Source: a virus
Lineage: Duplodnaviria > Heunggongvirae > Uroviricota > Caudoviricetes
Length of the DNA stretch: 7,222 nucleotides
IMG/VR virus record: IMGVR_UViG_2582580934_000004
Location: 1-7,222 of that record
Strand: one strand, 5' to 3'
The position numbers were made by a program, and so were the translations under genes. The notes under the pieces were generated by a model. The model did no database searches. It was not told where the DNA came from and saw only the letters and a list, made by a program, of their open reading frames with translations. Below, piece after piece: positions 700 to 6,710 of the stretch. Numbering within the stretch: position 1 is the stretch's first letter; each line of letters begins with the position of its first letter.

Positions 700-1089
700 A
701 TGATTGACGCTCATGACTTCACAAGATGGGTGCGCACACAGGACACCCGTCTGGCTCCCGTTCTTCAGGGATTATTTGATCTCTACATCCGTGGTCGTGA
801 CAACAGAGCACGCACCACAAAACCGGAGAATGCAGACACCCTTTATTTCACAGTAGACGACTGCTACCGCGTGGACTTCACACCACACGGGCTGGCGTTG
901 CACTGCCTGACACCACACGGCGAATCACTACTGGCGTATTACGACTCCCCGGCCTCCGTATTTGCGGCAATGCTGGCGCATCGCACTGCTGGCGGGTGTG
1001 CCTCGCTGAGTGAATACACCGCTGAATTTGACCGCCTTTCCGCCATAACCGCCTTTCCGCCCTCTTCTCGCAGGAGTGGCAGCGCGTGA
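700..1089 (+). CDS. Hypothetical protein (129 aa) immediately upstream of the replication gene
   Basis: ATG at 700 with aagag 8 nt upstream; stop at 1087-1089, 14 nt before the gpA ATG at 1103. The 3' end contains a 14-bp direct repeat (see 1031-1064). Confidence 0.45.
   Translation: MIDAHDFTRWVRTQDTRLAPVLQGLFDLYIRGRDNRARTTKPENADTLYFTVDDCYRVDFTPHGLALHCLTPHGESLLAYYDSPASVFAAMLAHRTAGGCASLSEYTAEFDRLSAITAFPPSSRRSGSA
1031..1064 (+). repeat. Direct repeat accgcctttccgcc x2 with a 17-bp period (14/17 identity between the two 17-bp units)
   Basis: Exact 14-mer at 1031-1044 and 1048-1061, separated by ata. Lies in the last codons of ORF 700-1089. Confidence 0.85.
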
Positions 1090-1471
1090 CGGGATACCAG
1101 CCATGAGTGCGTTTGCATGGAGCTGGAATGAACCACGACCAGCTATTGATCCGGCCAGATTTACGGAGCGCAGGCAGGAAACTGAAACCGACCTGCAACG
1201 CGCCATCCGTTACTACCTTGAGGCGGACAAAAGGGCACAGGAAGAACAGGAAGCGAAGGAAGAAGCCTTTTTCGCACAATCCGCCATGGGTAAAAAACTC
1301 ATGGCATCCCTTGAGGAAGCCGGACAGCGTGAAAAGCTGGCTCAGAGCATCATCAGTAAGCGCCGGGCAACAGAACAAGACCCGGTAGCCCGTGCCTTTG
1401 CCACACTGAAGGCGCTTCCCGTTTATCTGCGAGAACCTCTGAGCCGCCACCTCTCTTTCCTGCGCAAAAAA

Positions 1472-1523
1472 CAGGAAGCCGATCGCCGGAAAGGAAGCAG
1501 GAAGCCGATCGTCAGAAAGGCAA
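1472..1523 (+). repeat. Imperfect tandem duplication, 2 x 26 bp (22/26 identical)
   Basis: caggaagccgatcg is exact at 1472-1485 and 1498-1511. Deleting one 26-bp unit joins gpA frame 2 to frame 1, giving ...LRKKQEADRQKGKKSWQAERY... Confidence 0.85.
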
Positions 1524-2895
1524 AAAGAGCTGGCAGGCGGAACGCTATGCACGCGGAACCCTGCGCAAAATATTCGAACGTCTGGACCGCACCGACAGCC
1601 GCTGGCTGACACCGGGTTATCGCTCCCTTGCCGGACGCGAACGCCTGGATGATTTGCTTTACCTGCCGCAGCTCAACAAGCACCAGATACAGACGCTGGC
1701 CACCATGACGGCGGCGATGTTCAGCAGCACCTTCGAAAAACTCTGCGATGGCTTTGGCGCGACCGATGGTGAGCTGACCATGGAGGTGGCACTGAAGGCG
1801 TATCAGATGCTGGCCCGCATGGCGTTACACCTGCACGCCATGCCTCCACATTATGACGCACTGACAACAGACAAAGACCGCAAGAACGAACCGGACACGG
1901 AACTGCTGCCGGGCGCAATCCTCCGCCTGACCTGTGCGGAATGGTGGAAACGCAAACTGTGGCTGTTACGTTGCGAGTGGCGGGAAGAACAACTCCGCGC
2001 CGCCTGTCTGGTTTCCAGAAAAACATCGCCCTATCTGAGCCAGGACGCGTTAAGCGAGTTTCGCGCACAGCGCGAGAAAACACGCGATTTCCTGAAAAGT
2101 TTCATGCTGGAAAACGAAGACGGGTTCACGATTGATCTCGAGACGGTGTATTACGCGGGAGTAAGTAACCCGGTTCACCGTAAGGCAGAAATGATGGCCA
2201 CCATGAAGGGGCTGGAACTTCTGGCCGAAGCCCGTGGCGACAGAGCGGTGTTTCTGACTGTCACCTGCCCGTCAAAATACCACGCAACAACGGAGAACGG
2301 TCATCCGAATCCCAAATGGAACGGGGCCACTATGCGCGACTCCAGCGATTACCTGGTTAACACGTTTTTTGCGGCGGTCCGCAAAAAACTGAACCGCGAC
2401 GGCCTGCGCTGGTATGGCATCCGCACGGTGGAGCCTCACCATGACGGCACCGTGCACTGGCATATGATGGTCTTTGCTCATCCGGAAGAAATCGACAGCA
2501 TCGTGGCCATCACCCGCGATATTGCCATTCAGGAAGACCGCCACGAGCTGGGCAATGATATTACTCCGCGCTTTAAGGTGGAGTATGTCGACGGCTCAAA
2601 AGGCACACCAACCAGCTACATCGCCACCTACATCGGAAAGAACCTGGACAGCCGCGCCGTGGATGGCATCGACCCAAAAACGGGCAAGCCACGCGTTGAC
2701 CACGAAACCGGAAAATCAATGGCCGAGAGCGTGGAACGCGCCATCGGCTGGGCGCGCCTTCACCGGGTCCGCCAGTTCCAGTTCTTTGGCATTCCCTCCC
2801 GTCAGGTGTGGCGTGAACTCCGCCGCCTTGCCAGCCAGATGGCACGCAACCCGGAAGGCCCGCAACGGCTGAAGGATGACGCAATGGATGCGGTA

Positions 2896-2927
2896 CTCGC
2901 TGCCGCTGATTCTTGCTGCCGCTGATG
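2896..2927 (+). repeat. Imperfect tandem duplication, 2 x 16 bp (14/16 identical)
   Basis: gctgccgctgat is exact at 2899-2910 and 2915-2926. Deleting one unit joins frame 1 to frame 2, giving ...DAVLAAADAGCFATYIEKQ... Confidence 0.85.
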
Positions 2928-3239
2928 CCGGGTGTTTTGCCACCTACATTGAAAAACAGGGTGGCGTACTTGTTCCGCGCAAGGACTACCTGATTCGCAC
3001 AGCCTACGACCTCGCAGATGAGCTGAACGATTACGGCGAACAGAGTGTACAGATTTACGGGATCTGGTCGCCACTCATCGGGGAATCCTCCCGTGTGTGC
3101 ACGCACCCGGATAACTGGAAGCTGGTAAGACGTAAACCGGAAGCGGAAGACAGCACCCACGAAAATGGTTTTGACCTTCAGGGCGGCCCTGCCGCCCCTT
3201 GGACTCGTGGCAATAACTGTCCCCGTGTACAGGAAACGG

Positions 3240-3297
3240 ACAACAACGGGACAGAACAGCCGGAAGAAACAACAACGGGACAGAACAGCCGAAAGAA
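3240..3297 (+). repeat. Imperfect tandem duplication, 2 x 29 bp (28/29 identical)
   Basis: acaacaacgggacagaacagccg at 3240-3262 and 3269-3291. Deleting one unit joins gpA frame 2 to frame 1. Confidence 0.85.
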
Positions 3298-3940
3298 CGG
3301 CCAGCACCGTGGCCGCAGCTCCCTGACGGCGTTGAAGTGAACGAATGGATGCGCTCACTGAAACGGCACGAACGCCGGGCGCTGATGCGTTCGCTTCGTG
3401 ACAAACAGGCAAAAAACAGCAGTGATGAAATGCAGAGCTGGACACAGAGCCGCAAACAGCAGCGGCCTTTGCCTGATAACCACGAATTACTCGCTAAAGA
3501 ATGGCGGGAATCTGCCGAATCTCTCGGCCTGCATATCGGTGAACAGCAGATGCAGCACCTGTTACGGGGCGGCAGCCTGTACGTTGACGGCAGCATCATT
3601 GCACCGCAGGGATTTGAAATTGTACGCAAACCGGATACCCGCCCGGACAGCCGGATCACGCAGCTCTGGCAGCGCCTGAGCCGTAACCACGGCGTAAGCA
3701 GCACGGAGATCCGCCATAACCCGGTCGCCAGCTATCTGGAACAGCTGGGGGCATCAGACCCCGAAGCCGCCGCACGCCTGGCATCCACACTTCAGCAGGA
3801 CCAGAACACCATGAAAACACCCGTTACCGTGCTTTCTGACATGCTGCGCGCCATCCGCGACGCAGAGCACGCACAGAGAATCAGTGAAACCACTGAACGC
3901 GCCCGCCGCAAAGCAGACCTGCTGCGGGGTGGCCTGACCA

Positions 3941-4060
3941 GTGGAAACAAAAAACAGACAGAAACGGGATTCACAAATCCCGTAAATGAGCAAAAAACGC
4001 GCCGCGATATATGAAGCGCGCATAAAACAGGCAAAAACGGGATTTCAGAATCCCGTAAAC
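3941..4060 (+). promoter_or_regulatory. parC-like region: two related ~40-bp units, each with a 20-bp hairpin palindrome, directly upstream of the parM-like gene
   Basis: acgggatt-caca-aatcccgt at 3964-3983 and acgggatt-tcag-aatcccgt at 4037-4056 (perfect 8-bp arms, 73 bp apart), each preceded by an aaaacag..aaa motif. The first lies inside the last codons of the gpA frame. AAGGA RBS at 4078-4082. Confidence 0.4.
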
Positions 4061-4090
4061 GATTAATTAATCAACATAAGGAAAAGCGAC

Positions 4091-5073
4091 ATGAAAATTT
4101 GTATCGACGACGGCTCCACCAACATCAAGCTGGCATGGACTGAGAACGGCGAACGCCGCAACGCCATCAGCCCGAACAGCTTCAAGTCGGAATGGTCTGC
4201 GCCGTTCGGTGGTACGCAGCCCGCGAACTACATGCTTGATGGCGTGCGCTATGGTTTTGATCCGGTCAGCGATCGCTTTGTCCAGACGACCGACACGCAA
4301 TACCAGTACAGCGATGTGAATGTCATTGCCATTCATCACGCGCTGGTCAAATCAGGCATCACGCCACAGGAGGTGGATGTGGTTGTCACCCTGCCACTGA
4401 GCGAGTATTTCGACACAAACGCACAGCCGGACATGGCCAACATCAGCCGCAAAAAAGCGAACGTATCAACCGCAAAAAAGCGAACGTTATGCGCCCGGTG
4501 GAGTACCAGAACGGCGAAGCATTCACTATCCGTAACGTACGGGTTATGCCTGAATCCATTCCGGCTGGCTTTAAAGCACTGGCTGACATGAGTCCGTTTG
4601 AATCCCTGCTGATTGTGGATTTGGGCGGAACCACGCTGGATGTGGCAAAGGTTCAGGGGCAACTGGCAGGTATCAGCCAGGTGTTTTGCGATCCACACGT
4701 AGGCGTTTCTCTGATGGCCAATGCCGTACTGTCGGTGATGGCCACTAACGGTATGCGCACCAGTCACCACATCGCCAATACCATTATCGAACATCGCCAT
4801 GATGAAGCCTGGCTGCGCCAGCACATCCACAATGACGCGCATTACGACAGCCTGATGGCGGTTATTCGTGAAAAGGAAGAAACACTGAAACAACGAGTGA
4901 TCCGCGCGCTGGCGGGTTTTTCGGGTTACGGGCGGGTGATGGTTGTCGGTGGCGGGGCGGAGATTGTGGCACCCGCTATCCGCGAAGCCTGCGGAGTTAA
5001 TGCGACTTTCATCGCGGACGGGGTGCCACAGTTTGCTCTGGTTAATGGGCTGTACGCAATGGACAAGGAGTAA
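4091..5073 (+). pseudogene. parM: ParM/StbA-like actin-family segregation ATPase, split by one frameshift
   Basis: Translation matches plasmid R1 ParM at recalled conserved blocks: ICIDDGSTNIKLAW, ISPNSFK, YSDVNVIAIHHAL, RKKANV, VMPESIPAG, LIVDLGGTTLD, VMVVGGGAEI, FALVNGLYAMDKE. Frame 2 (4091 to about 4464) switches to frame 1 (about 4465-5073) at a 23-bp tandem duplication. Without the duplication the product is 319 aa, about the size of R1 ParM. Confidence 0.8.
4442..4487 (+). repeat. Imperfect tandem duplication, 2 x 23 bp (22/23 identical)
   Basis: atcagccgcaaaaaagcgaacgt / atcaaccgcaaaaaagcgaacgt. Deleting one unit gives ...ANISRKKANVMRPVEYQNGEAFTIRNVRVMPESIP..., colinear with ParM. Confidence 0.9.
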
Positions 5074-5077
5074 ACCA

Positions 5078-5389
5078 ATGACGACACCAACCAGACGGAT
5101 AAGTTTCTATCTGAAGCCCGTCGCCGTCAAGAACGAAGGCGAAGCATGCGCCTGGCTGGACAGCCTTACACCAGAAGCCCGCAAAAGCGGCCAACGTGTG
5201 GCTTTTCTGGCCGGGCTGGCACTTCTGAAAATGAATCCGGCAGAGGCTTACCGACTGGCTGCATGGGCTGACGATGAGGCGTTATCAGTGACACAAACCA
5301 GGACAGAACGCCCCGCGTCACAGCCAGTACCAACCACACAGATAACCAGTCGGATGGCCGGAAATATCAGGGCGTTATTTCCCGAATAA
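5078..5389 (+). CDS. parR: ParR-like centromere-binding adaptor (103 aa)
   Basis: ATG at 5078 preceded by AAGGAG at 5065-5070, starting 4 nt after the parM stop (TAA 5071-5073). RRISFYLKP....RVAFLAGLALL resembles the N-terminal DNA-binding region of R1 ParR (recalled). The ORF track extends this frame to ATG 4943 inside parM, which is unlikely to be the real start. Confidence 0.6.
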   Translation: MTTPTRRISFYLKPVAVKNEGEACAWLDSLTPEARKSGQRVAFLAGLALLKMNPAEAYRLAAWADDEALSVTQTRTERPASQPVPTTQITSRMAGNIRALFPE

Positions 5390-5394
5390 CACAA

Positions 5395-5418
5395 CATCAG
5401 GGCGCATCCGCCCTGATG
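5395..5418 (+). promoter_or_regulatory. Inverted repeat with 10-bp arms (catcagggcg / cgccctgatg) between parR and the next gene; operator or weak terminator
   Basis: Perfect 10-bp arms around a 4-nt loop. The core ATCAGGGCG also occurs as a direct copy at 5366-5374. Followed by actttaat, which is only weakly U-rich. Confidence 0.35.
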
Positions 5419-5452
5419 ACTTTAATCCGGGAACATAAACAAGGGGGACACA

Positions 5453-5785
5453 ATGCAACACATTGACAGAGAAAAAGCGCAGCGACTGATTGAGCGGATG
5501 GAAGCGCTGGCGAAAGAAGAAAATGTCAACATCCAAAAAATAGCTGAATGTGGCCAGATAGTTCTTCGTCGTGAAAAAGACCTCAAACAACTGATGTCTG
5601 GCGAAACCAGCAAAACATGGACTTCAGGCGAGGAGACGATTTATTGCAGCTTCTGCAATAAATCTCAGTACGAAGTCACAAAGGTGATTGCCGGACCGTC
5701 TGTTTGCATCTGCAATGAGTGCGTGGATTTGTGCAATGAAATTATCAGGAGAGAAGTGACAGACAAAAAGGGAAAAAACGCATGA
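5453..5785 (+). CDS. Small protein (110 aa) with a C-terminal ClpX-type C4 zinc-finger (ClpX N-domain-like) and an unrelated ~60-aa N-terminal region
   Basis: ATG at 5453 with aaggggga RBS at 5441-5448. Residues [39 protein letters not shown] closely resemble the E. coli ClpX zinc-binding domain (recalled as [40 protein letters not shown]), including all four Cys. No AAA+ domain follows. Confidence 0.75.
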
Positions 5786-6120
5786 ACAGAAAACAAAAAC
5801 AAGAGTTGAAATACTTTTTACGTAAAGAAATTGCCAGGCTTGAAGATGCAGAATCACAATCATCAGAAATTCCGTTCGGAATGGATATCAACGACGCCCG
5901 TATGCTCCAGGCATACCGCATAGCTCAGGCTGCACTACAGGCAAAACCGTCAGATGGACTGGTTAGAGCAGTACGATTCTATGAACTGGTAAAGCGTGAG
6001 AATCCGCCAGCCGAAACCGGAGCATGGAAAGACGCTGTTGACTGGGTACTCAAAGAGGCTTGTCAGGTTGTAAACACTGGCATCAAAGGAGACCTAGCCC
6101 AGCCTGCATCAAAGCTATAG
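5782..6120 (+). CDS. Hypothetical protein (112 aa), translationally coupled to the ClpX-zinc-finger gene
   Basis: ATG at 5782 overlaps the upstream TGA (5783-5785) as ATGA; aaggga about 8 nt upstream; stop TAG at 6118-6120 followed by a strong terminator. No family recognised. Confidence 0.6.
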
Positions 6121-6130
6121 AAATGAGCCA

Positions 6131-6160
6131 AAACGCCCTCTTCCAGGGCGTTTATTTCAA
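6131..6160 (+). terminator. Rho-independent terminator ending the + strand cargo operon
   Basis: Perfect 9-bp stem aaacgccct (6131-6139) / agggcgttt (6145-6153), 5-nt loop, then atttcaa; begins 11 nt after the stop at 6120. Confidence 0.7.
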
Positions 6161-6310: not shown

Positions 6311-6318
6311 GGGGGGGG
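6311..6318. repeat. Homopolymeric G8 tract adjacent to a small hairpin (gggaa-tagcg-ttccc)
   Basis: Eight consecutive G at 6311-6318 in non-coding DNA; gggaa (6316-6320) pairs with ttccc (6326-6330). Confidence 0.85.
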
Positions 6319-6586: not shown

Positions 6587-6636
6587 GCGAAGCAGCAGAC
6601 AAGCGAAGCGCGTCAGGATGTGGGCTGGGTGTCCAG

Positions 6637-6710
6637 CAGTGCATAAGGGTTAAAGCGGATCACCTCTATCTAACAGTGCGTAAGGGTTAAAGCGGATCAC
6701 CTCTTCGCCA
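6637..6710. repeat. Imperfect tandem duplication with a 37-bp period across the 3' end of the portal gene
   Basis: cagtgcataagggttaaagcggatcacctct (6637-6667) against cagtgcgtaagggttaaagcggatcacctct (6674-6704), 30/31 identical. The - strand stop codon (6650-6652) lies inside the first copy. Confidence 0.85.

Follow-up and report, generated by a model that had tools for sequence, protein, structure and literature searches.

A 7,222-nt stretch of Escherichia coli draft sequence (hereafter, the window) contains, at positions 3950–5420, an R1-type ParMRC module which, we hold with moderate confidence, is vertically inherited and selected in P88-like/P2-family temperate phages, lies just behind gpA where the early replication operon ends, and acts on extrachromosomal circles. 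Judged by sequence, the cassette consists of genuine type II ParM/ParR partition genes: ParM, once its reading frame is repaired, is homologous to R1 ParM over its full length and has a complete set of motifs, and ParR belongs to the R1 ParR/StbB family. A first-pass annotation of the window had proposed a type II (actin-like) ParM/ParR/putative-centromere cassette in a P2-like phage, and Pfam, PHROG, the R1 ParM structure and ParR alignments agree with this proposal. It had also taken the cassette to be unfamiliar in P2-like phages, which does not hold: RefSeq annotates both genes in P88 (gp17/gp18) and in 1,304 of 5,426 complete E. coli genomes (~24%), and a putative partition system has been reported between gpA and gpQ in about one quarter of E. 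coli P2-like phages (Rousset et al., 2022; PMC9122126). The system described in that study and P88 gp17/gp18 do not differ in kind from the window cassette and occupy the same locus; what sets the window copy apart is a 23-nt duplication in parM. The cassette is thus already known, and what is added here is the intactness of parM and its pN/pS, the duplications unique to the contig, ParM relatives in other genera, a conserved two-site putative centromere, and counts of chromosomal locations.

The window is a stand-alone E. coli draft contig of 7.2 kb that originates from a P88-like prophage (Xuanwuvirus, Peduoviridae). It is 96% identical to E. coli prophages over its whole length and has the same gene order, with gpA, parMR and the portal gene collinear. 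The cassette is 97.2% identical to P88 at the nucleotide level over 100% of its length, and repaired ParM is 99.1% identical to P88 gp17. P88-type phages are integrative, P2-like phages of 31–40 kb. Directly upstream of the par cassette, and on the same (+) strand, lies the gene for the gpA replication endonuclease (1076–4014), which is a single 940-aa CDS in the RefSeq annotation of P88 and is divided into four ORFs in the window contig; PF05840 is found in the product of 1705–2925. In P2, gpA is a cis-acting rolling-circle initiator that is expressed from a repressed early operon.

The parM gene (4091–5073, + strand) encodes an actin-like ATPase and is 960 nt (319 aa) when intact; in the window contig it is 983 nt and frame-shifted. 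Deletion of either copy of the 23-nt duplication restores a 319-aa protein, which matches Pfam StbA_N (4.3e-82) and ParM_C (2e-68), as well as PHROG 691 ‘partition protein’ (8e-90), and which aligns end to end (residues 2–316) with R1 ParM structures (PDB 1MWK; E = 9.4e-93). The nucleotide-binding motifs DDGSTNIK, PESIPAG, DLGGTTLD and GGGAE are present in the repaired protein. The frame is intact in 85 of 87 relatives, and parM has a pN/pS of 0.06.

The parR gene (5078–5389, + strand) encodes a predicted centromere-binding adaptor of 103 aa and is translationally coupled to parM, in line with the coupled RBS of the first-pass annotation. The ribosome-binding sequence AAGGAG (5065–5070) lies inside the 3′ end of parM and the parR ATG lies 4 nt beyond the parM stop codon. 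ParR is a member of PF10784 Plasmid_stab_B (2e-23; 82.4 bits against a cut-off of 25) and of PHROG 2515 ‘partition protein’ (7.8e-58). ParR aligns with the ParR proteins of R1 and IncI/K, sharing with R1 ParR the N-terminal residues R6, F10 and P14 and a C-terminal tail of the form N-I/A-x-x-L-F/I. The two termini are also the constrained parts of the protein, with a pN/pS of 0.15 in the N-domain and 0.04 in the C-tail versus 0.59 in the linker; the C-terminal N-I-x-A-L-F-P is kept among otherwise divergent ParR alleles, and the R1 and IncI/K tails have the motif too. An AF2 model of ParR built from 28 sequences is of low confidence (mean pLDDT 53.8), with residues 1–17 unstructured and helices at 20–29, 32–52 and 54–61; this model is compatible with an RHH fold whose strand would form only in the dimer. 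Comparison of the ParR sequence with the PDB gave no match beyond chance antibody entries.

The description of the cassette as complete fits the family, in which parM is nearly always intact, but is untrue of the window contig as written because its parM frame is interrupted. The interruption is an imperfect tandem duplication of 23 nt (4442–4487, + strand) with copies at 4442–4464 (ATCAGCCGCAAAAAAGCGAACGT) and 4465–4487 (ATCAACCGCAAAAAAGCGAACGT), which splits parM into ORFs 4091–4591 and 4489–5073. The duplication occurs in none of 86 relatives, and each copy alone is a natural allele (copy A in six loci, copy B in 72). Altogether, the 7.2-kb window has seven imperfect tandem duplications that are absent from all 86 relatives. 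These insertions are 16–37 nt long, with lengths that are not multiples of three, and hit parM, gpA (three breaks, coinciding with duplications at ~1487, 2899 and 3264), an upstream ORF, the C4 RNA and the portal 3′ end.

So many interrupted elements in a single contig might be taken to mean that the cassette is a decaying, non-functional remnant in a defective prophage. This is unlikely, as the insertions are confined to the window contig, parM is otherwise intact and under strong constraint, and P88, phiSM and further carriers are viable as isolated phages. Moreover, a fresh tandem duplication should give identical copies, yet the observed copies differ at 1–13 positions, in a contig that is less than 4% different from its relatives. 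At three of the duplication sites both copies occur as natural alleles in other prophages, which fits merging of two related prophage copies by the assembler. The best-matching relative of the contig switches from one segment to the next, a pattern that alternation of two haplotypes at the junctions and phage mosaicism would both give. The parM frame break is probably an assembly artefact rather than a biological pseudogene, and the apparent gpA pseudogene is probably an assembly error too.

The candidate centromere (parC) consists of two 42-nt direct repeats on the + strand, at 3948–3989 and 4021–4062, which are 81% identical and spaced by 73 nt. Each contains a 20-bp palindrome, and both palindromes are found where the first-pass annotation had placed them: ACGGGATTCACAAATCCCGT at 3964–3983, with the structure ACGGGATT-CACA-AATCCCGT, and ACGGGATTTCAGAATCCCGT at 4037–4056, with the structure ACGGGATT-TCAG-AATCCCGT. 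The pattern CGGGAT-N6-ATCCCG, with two mismatches or fewer, matches only these two palindromes in the window, against 0.26 expected, and with zero or one mismatch only the same two candidate sites in the 35.8-kb P88 genome; no extra putative ParR sites were found elsewhere in the phage genome beyond chance-level matches with two mismatches. The second repeat is followed by a segment (4066–4086, + strand) composed of a conserved box, ATTAATCAA (4066–4074), and the parM ribosome-binding site AAGGAA (4078–4083). The box is invariant in 59 distinct P88-type upstream sequences and is present also in loci L091 and L092.

The overlap between the first palindrome and the 3′ end of gpA, likewise pointed out earlier, is real: the gpA stop codon is at 4012–4014, repeat unit 1 lies within the last 22 gpA codons, and the RefSeq annotation of P88 has the same overlap. 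Even so, homology with loci in which another gene precedes the module (L057, L066) begins at 3950, 14 nt before palindrome 1, which indicates that the site is part of the par module and not of gpA. The dyads accompany parMR where unrelated upstream ORFs replace gpA, and the L066 upstream ORF and gpA have in common only the 21 residues that are encoded by module DNA. The upstream ORFs of L057, L066 and L092 were considered as a third par component and rejected, being mutually unrelated. In Plesiomonas and Hafnia relatives, two GGG-N10-CCC sites are present with matching offsets from the parM ATG, so that the dyad spacing across the three lineages is 73, 72 and 73 nt.

These features bear on the possibility that the palindromes are terminators, RNA hairpins or gpA/ori-related elements instead of a centromere. 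In a scan, both palindromes were called as terminator-like sites of the minus strand; each could fold into an 8-bp hairpin (-10.7 kcal/mol), and site 1 is located within gpA. However, the palindromes have no T-run after them on the + strand, and no gene of the minus strand is read into them. In the relatives from Plesiomonas and Hafnia, GGG-N10-CCC and the spacing are all that is kept, hairpin stability falling to about -4.5 kcal/mol, and where other ORFs take the place of gpA the sites remain next to parMR. That the palindromes are terminators, RNA hairpins or gpA/ori-related elements is highly improbable. Within the partition reading itself, the two dyads, as putative ParR sites, could be an operator only, R1 parC having as many as ten iterons. 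Within E. coli, no covariation of ParR allele with parC variant was found; both allele groups share the N-terminal 14 residues of ParR as well as the same sites.

At the other end of the module, a perfect 10-bp hairpin (5395–5418, no strand assigned) located 3′ of parR probably ends the parMR transcript and marks the right edge of the conserved module. The number of P88-type loci sharing homology falls from 85–86 at 5150–5200 to 51 at 5400 and 24 at 5450, and a variable slot (5445–6150), occupied in ~20 of 86 loci, begins right after parR. Since the gpA–gpQ interval is a hotspot for defence genes and other cargo (Rousset et al., 2022; PMC9122126), and since the truly variable slot adjoins the 3′ side of parR, the cassette might itself be accessory cargo aimed at other elements, acting in exclusion of or incompatibility with related phages or plasmids or providing an anti-phage actin-like protein. 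Such a role is very unlikely. None of the four proteins scanned (ParM, ParR and the two encoded downstream) matches a PADLOC-DB model at E <= 0.01, and within the hotspot the cassette occupies the conserved side, accompanying ~92–94% of P88-type gpA copies (parM at 1413–1452 places versus 1540 for P88-type gpA). Unlike swapped cargo, it keeps its position down to 54% ParM identity, and it retains cis-acting candidate sites on the phage's own DNA. In addition, plasmid ParM and ParR proteins (at most 52% and 25% identity, respectively) are too distant for cross-talk.

Expression of the cassette most likely occurs together with the early operon, as can be reasoned from three observations: the phage is nearly always integrated, parC has no recognisable promoter, and there is no terminator between gpA and parM. 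A consensus scan found no sigma-70 promoter at parC of the E. coli-type cassette, and a PWM scan reached 3.2 at best, a score close to the random-window median, whereas the R1 control reached 11.2; this is a weak negative. A P2 late-promoter motif (TGT-N12-ACA) was not found at parC, nor was a terminator-like site on the + strand between gpA and parM in 3800–4091. In the Hafnia relative, a promoter-like match of moderate strength (PWM score 9.0) overlaps site 2, so that autoregulated expression in lysogens is possible.

Several lines of evidence point to an old phage lineage of these genes, and not to the recent capture from a plasmid that was considered at first. ParM relatives with 62, 61, 59 and 54% identity are found in Plesiomonas, Hafnia, Serratia and Enterobacter, respectively, in all cases in P2-like prophages, with gpA on one side and the portal gene on the other, and each has a PF10784 gene after it. 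Plasmid ParMs are at most 52% identical to the window ParM, and that comparison shows nothing between 52 and 95%. The ParM homologues of 49–50% identity that were examined are located in an integrated plasmid and an ICE. In a neighbour-joining tree, the phage ParMs form one clade (15 of 106 sequences) that contains no plasmid ParMs.

An episomal phage-plasmid lifestyle, also suggested at first, is disfavoured by the distribution of the cassette in complete E. coli genomes, where 1450 of 1452 places are chromosomal, a figure that describes distribution and not physiology. A facultative form of the idea is that the phage is usually integrated and that ParMRC, perhaps together with a hok/gef-type killer, allows a low-copy plasmid state when attB is not free or after excision, a reading in line with the speculation of Rousset et al. 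on a role in plasmid maintenance (Rousset et al., 2022; PMC9122126). ParMRC is indeed a classic stabiliser of low-copy plasmids, and the plasmid prophage D6 has a ParM that is 47.8% identical to the window ParM. One circular ‘plasmid’ record of 34,461 bp is a complete phage genome, to which a phage integrated in a sibling strain of that study is 99.9% identical, and P88 has a hok/gef-family gene; both this 34.4-kb record and the hok/gef-type gene are compatible with a plasmid phase. A facultative plasmid state is nevertheless rather unlikely. The phage has an integrase, a C repressor and Cox, P2-type gpA replication gives no obvious copy-controlled plasmid replicon, and parC is devoid of a recognisable promoter. 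In this lone circular record, the assembler could have captured an induced replicative form. The Shigella ‘plasmid’ match is a linear fragment interrupted by IS1.

The likeliest role of the module, as we infer it, is the moving of extrachromosomal circular phage DNA at infection or induction. ParR dimers would bind to the two GGGA-N8-TCCC dyads upstream of parM, and the C-terminal tails of ParR would catch the ends of ATP-driven ParM filaments, which, as they grow, would push circular copies of the phage genome apart. The substrate would be extrachromosomal circles, both those that follow infection and are not yet integrated and those that arise by excision or are being replicated, in a manner comparable to AlpA/AlpC of the prophage CGP3; the cassette would not serve to maintain a plasmid prophage. 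In the literature on ParM in P2-like phages, P88 and Xuanwuvirus, no functional study was found, and besides the plasmid-maintenance speculation the published mention is a listing under ‘fitness’ at the annotation level (PMC6456863).

The closest relatives of the machinery are the ParMRC systems of plasmids R1/NR1 (the parA locus; StbA/StbB), with which the phage module shares the order of centromere (a candidate one in the phage), parM and parR and the coupled translation. R1 ParM aligns over its full length, with about half of the positions identical by eye and with the nucleotide-binding motifs present, and R1-type plasmid ParMs have 46.5% identity to the window ParM (tblastn). R1 ParR likewise belongs to PF10784 and has in common with the phage protein the N-terminal R-x-x-x-F-x-x-x-P and the C-terminal N-A/I-x-x-L-I/F, but it is 116 aa long, whereas the phage ParR, at 103 aa, is without a segment of ~15 residues. 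R1 parC is also directly upstream of parM and also has two units, iteron clusters in R1 and dyads in the phage; it differs, however, in consisting of ten 11-bp direct iterons around a strong promoter, whereas in the phage region a pair of 20-bp dyads is spaced by 73 bp and a promoter is not recognisable. The replicons differ too, one being a low-copy plasmid and the other an integrative P2-like phage.

Among phages, D6 (P1-like) is similarly a tailed phage with an R1-type ParM, but its genome is 91 kb and its record annotates a StbA-type plasmid stability protein, in contrast to the 31–40-kb integrative phages of the P88 type. D6 lysogenises as a plasmid. By analogy, AlpAC of the Corynebacterium glutamicum prophage CGP3 would be the best functional counterpart of the proposed role. 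AlpA/AlpC are early gene products that act on excised circular phage DNA, and alpAC mutants have about 2-fold less circular DNA (PMC4446434). AlpA/AlpC/alpS and the P88-type module both combine an actin-like filament protein, a DNA-binding adaptor and upstream sites in an integrated prophage, these parts being predicted from sequence on the P88 side. The resemblance has limits: AlpC is a distant actin-like protein and not an R1-type ParM, CGP3 is an unrelated phage of an actinobacterial host, and the AlpAC function is demonstrated, while that of the P88-type module is proposed.

For the window itself, the lesson is that the pseudogene appearance of parM and gpA probably reflects assembly error and not biology. 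For the family, strong purifying selection maintains a plasmid-segregation machine in a lineage of integrative phages that is present in ~24% of complete E. coli genomes, and the machine occurs in related phages of at least four other genera as well. If dual lysogeny were true, a facultative phage-plasmid would be present in about one quarter of E. coli genomes. If the module works in the manner of AlpAC, it may be the first actin-based system for positioning replicating phage DNA in a Gram-negative host. Its role, once known, could reveal a step of temperate-phage life that has so far been unaccounted for, the candidates being partitioning of unintegrated genomes at lysogenisation, organisation of replication and packaging, and rescue of excised circles.

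The window is the entire contig AYJZ01000063.1 (7,222 bp) of GCA_000511465.1, a draft E. coli assembly. Phage P88 (Xuanwuvirus, Peduoviridae), at its early-operon end, and many E. coli prophages are collinear with it. Near its left end, an isrK/C4 antisense-RNA region (113-340) includes isrK (126-200; 64 bits) and C4 antisense RNA (236-340; 74 bits; match broken by a 17-nt duplication), both above the Rfam gathering score. These RNAs lie immediately upstream of a 'derepression' ORF (397-627; PF25738), and the arrangement resembles the antisense-RNA/antirepressor control of P1 immI, here within a P2-like phage. A hypothetical ORF separates it from the gene for the gpA replication endonuclease, which ends at 4014 and is followed by parM (4091-5073) and parR (5078-5389).

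Database searches confirmed the presence of a ParM-like actin ATPase and a ParR-like adaptor, as claimed in the first-pass annotation. When either copy of a 23-nt duplication is removed from parM, the repaired product of 319 aa matches the Pfam domains StbA_N (4.3e-82) and ParM C-terminal (2e-68), PHROG 691 'partition protein' and the crystal structures of R1 ParM (E 9.4e-93, residues 2-316), and contains the nucleotide-binding motifs. ParR (103 aa) matches PF10784 (2e-23) and PHROG 2515, and its start lies 4 nt past the parM stop, with AAGGAG ahead of it. The description of a complete cassette with a coupled RBS thus stands for the palindromes and both genes as placed, but parM is interrupted in this contig.

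Several ParR alleles exist, with an overall identity of only about 50%; MTTPTRRISFYLKP at the N-terminus and N-I-x-A-L-F-P at the C-terminus are retained in all of them, and the C-terminal motif is also present in R1 and IncI/K ParR. Values of pN/pS are 0.15 for ParR residues 1-65, 0.59 for the linker (66-92) and 0.04 for the C-terminal 11 residues, compared with 0.06 for parM. Conserved ends with a variable middle are what would be expected if a flexible linker joined a DNA-binding domain to a ParM-binding tail; an AF2 model of ParR, checked for an RHH fold, is of low confidence (pLDDT 54). At the sequence level the module has the attributes of a type II ParMRC system, with ParR–ParM and centromere binding predicted.

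The candidate centromere consists of two palindromes, ACGGGATT-N4-AATCCCGT, at 3964-3983 and 4037-4056, each within one of two 42-nt direct repeats (3948-3989 and 4021-4062) that are 73 nt apart. The core pattern occurs at these two places only within the window (0.26 expected), and at 0-1 mismatch is confined to the same two sites throughout the P88 genome. With its stop at 4012-4014, the gpA frame ends between the palindromes, and the RefSeq annotation of P88 has the same overlap, which bears out the earlier statement that the first palindrome is within the 3' end of gpA. In L057 and L066, two E. coli-type par loci, gpA of another type is followed by unrelated ORFs, and homology to the window starts at 3950, 14 nt ahead of palindrome 1. 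In L066 an unrelated 155-aa ORF shares with gpA only its last 21 residues, encoded by module DNA, so site 1 is part of the par module rather than of the upstream gene. The left recombination border of the module is sharp at 3950 (compare L057 ~4820-5000 and L066 4457-4924), and the upstream ORF, gpA in the window or the 155-aa ORF in L066, gains the tail KKQTETGFTNPVNEQKTRRDI by reading in.

General sequence similarity to the window is absent from the centromere-like regions of the Plesiomonas and Hafnia relatives, but in both the 200 nt upstream of parM contain two GGG-N10-CCC sites, no more, in a window-like placement, and the ATTAATCAA box is common to all three. The spacing is 73 nt in the window (sites 125 and 52 nt from the ATG), 72 nt in Plesiomonas (131 and 59 nt) and 73 nt in Hafnia (128 and 55 nt). 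Hairpin stability of the sites varies (-10.7 vs about -4.5 kcal/mol), which favors protein-binding dyads over RNA/DNA hairpins or terminators. That the palindromes are something other than a centromere is highly improbable, given that hairpin energy is unconserved while a spacing of 72-73 nt is kept in three lineages. ParR begins with TRRISFYLNP in Plesiomonas and TRRVSFYLKP in Hafnia; the Serratia and Enterobacter relatives have another N-terminus (NRKISFYLKP) and other inverted repeats. These joint differences in ParR and its putative sites are consistent with co-evolution.

The break in parM is an imperfect tandem duplication with copies at 4442-4464 and 4465-4487. It is one of seven insertions of 16-37 nt relative to the closest relative (near 296, 1029, 1487, 2899, 3264, 4442 and 6630), all imperfect tandem duplications and none of a length divisible by three (duplicated stretches at ~279-312, 1029-1062, 1461-1512, 2899-2930, 3235-3292, 4442-4487 and 6630-6703). 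They break C4 RNA, one ORF, gpA (three times), parM and the portal 3' end, as would be the case in a truly dead copy. However, none of the seven was found in 86 related loci, and an intact 319-aa ParM is encoded in 85 of 87 loci, making a dead copy in this genome quite unlikely. When a tandem duplication arises, its two copies are identical. Here the copies differ at 1-13 positions, in a contig about 96% identical to relatives, and at three sites, including parM, each copy alone is a natural allele of other prophages; these features, with the absence from relatives, argue against real duplications. As this prophage type reaches three copies per E. coli genome, the assembler probably joined reads of two related prophage copies and left the overlaps unmerged. 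In a check for alternating haplotypes, the best match among the relatives shifted along the window, a pattern that such joining or phage mosaicism could each produce. The parM frame break is probably not biological.

The ParM sequences of plasmids are at most 52% identical to that of the module, and among these the range between 52% and 95% is empty; the ParM of the plasmid prophage D6 is 47.8% identical. In a large protein collection, intermediates were found in Plesiomonas (62%), Hafnia (61%), Serratia (59%) and Enterobacter (54%), all four in P2-like prophages, in the gpA-to-portal position and followed by a PF10784 gene. In a neighbor-joining tree without bootstrap, these and the E. coli type group together (15 of 106 sequences). 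Of two chromosomal homologues at 49-50%, one belongs to an integrated plasmid and the other to an ICE. The low identity of plasmid ParMs, the relatives at the same phage position and the tree point to an old phage feature and counter the earlier suggestion of plasmid capture, at least a recent one. By these comparisons the module is an old, vertically inherited trait of one P2-family branch.

After parR, a 110-aa ClpX-zinc-finger-only protein (5453-5785; C4 zinc finger, PF06689, 2.9e-16) and an overlapping 112-aa ORF (5782-6120) occupy a variable cargo slot (~5445-6150) that only about 20 of 86 P88-type loci have; speculatively, a ClpX N-domain on its own might disturb the recognition of adaptors or substrates by ClpX. 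Other cargo fills the slot in the Serratia and Enterobacter relatives (L094 9450-10084 and L095 9411-10757): one has a HicA/HicB toxin-antitoxin, the other a KAP-family NTPase. Such swapped cargo fits the gpA-gpQ hotspot (Rousset et al., 2022; PMC9122126). PADLOC defense models matched neither this ORF pair nor the par module, and it is very unlikely that the module is cargo aimed at other elements. Next comes the cos-proximal region and, last, the portal gene, represented by its 3' part and lying on the minus strand. In cos-proximal non-coding DNA, the G-run at 6311-6318 contains an extra base compared with the closest relative (a single-base insertion in GGGGGGG), which could be a homopolymer sequencing error.

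The cassette is present in 14 phage records (including P88, PhiR44_2, P884B11, phiSM, Chuche, 520873 and 503458) and in 1,304 of 5,426 complete E. coli genomes, at 1,452 places, 1,450 of them chromosomal. P88-type gpA occurs at 1,540 places and parM at 1,413-1,452, indicating tight linkage of the two genes. Seven matches were found in the plasmid database. Five are records of 228 kb to 1.4 Mb, presumably large plasmids that contain a prophage or replicons with the wrong label, and one is a linear, IS1-interrupted fragment. The other, NZ_CP148288.1 (34,461 bp, circular), was submitted as a plasmid of E. coli but comprises a whole P88-like phage genome, integrase included, and a 99.9% identical phage sits in the chromosome of a sibling strain from the same study; the circular record may represent a replicative form after induction or a genuine episome.

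P88 carries integrase, C and Cox. A host-killing gene of the hok/gef family (MokW-like) is also annotated in it, at 34928-35068. The two stability loci of plasmid R1 are parMRC and a hok-type post-segregational killer, and P88 has homologues of both. This gene and the whole-phage circular record would suit a facultative plasmid state, but that state is unlikely in view of the chromosomal distribution and the presence of integrase, C and Cox. The module does not show the distribution of a phage-plasmid, and the location of the element does not support the episomal lifestyle first proposed: it is integrated nearly always. From the chromosomal places, the nature of the plasmid matches and the integration genes, an episomal lysogenic state is at best rare.

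The cassette is real, correctly identified, ordinary and previously described. RefSeq names parM and parR in P88 and E. coli genomes, 'partition protein' families in PHROGs cover both genes, the phiSM gene is listed as a putative fitness factor (PMC6456863), and Rousset et al. [quoted passage not shown] A functional study of it was not found in the literature on ParM in P2-like phages, P88 or Xuanwuvirus. What the present analysis adds is how deep the phage-specific clade goes, the conservation of the two-dyad candidate centromere, the selection pattern and the likelihood that the frame breaks are artefacts.

parMR lies directly after gpA on the same strand; a terminator between gpA and parM was not found, nor was a sigma-70 promoter recognisable at parC of the E. 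coli type, and a hairpin is present 3' of parR (5395-5418). These features and near-universal integration suggest that parMR would be expressed along with the early operon. In R1 parC a strong promoter is surrounded by ten 11-bp iterons; by comparison, the P88-type module has a minimal two-site arrangement. The adaptor sites of AlpA/AlpC, early genes of prophage CGP3, lie upstream of their operon, and circular phage DNA is down about 2-fold in deletion mutants (PMC4446434); this system is an experimentally supported analogue of the role that the sequence suggests for the P88-type module. The identity of ParM and ParR, selection on both and site-gene linkage are established by sequence comparison; beyond these, ParR would bind both dyads, ParM filaments would be captured by the ParR tail, and the filaments would push phage DNA circles apart after infection, after excision or during replication. 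We consider it fairly probable that the module is a functional partition cassette, expressed with the early operon, which would act on extrachromosomal phage circles.
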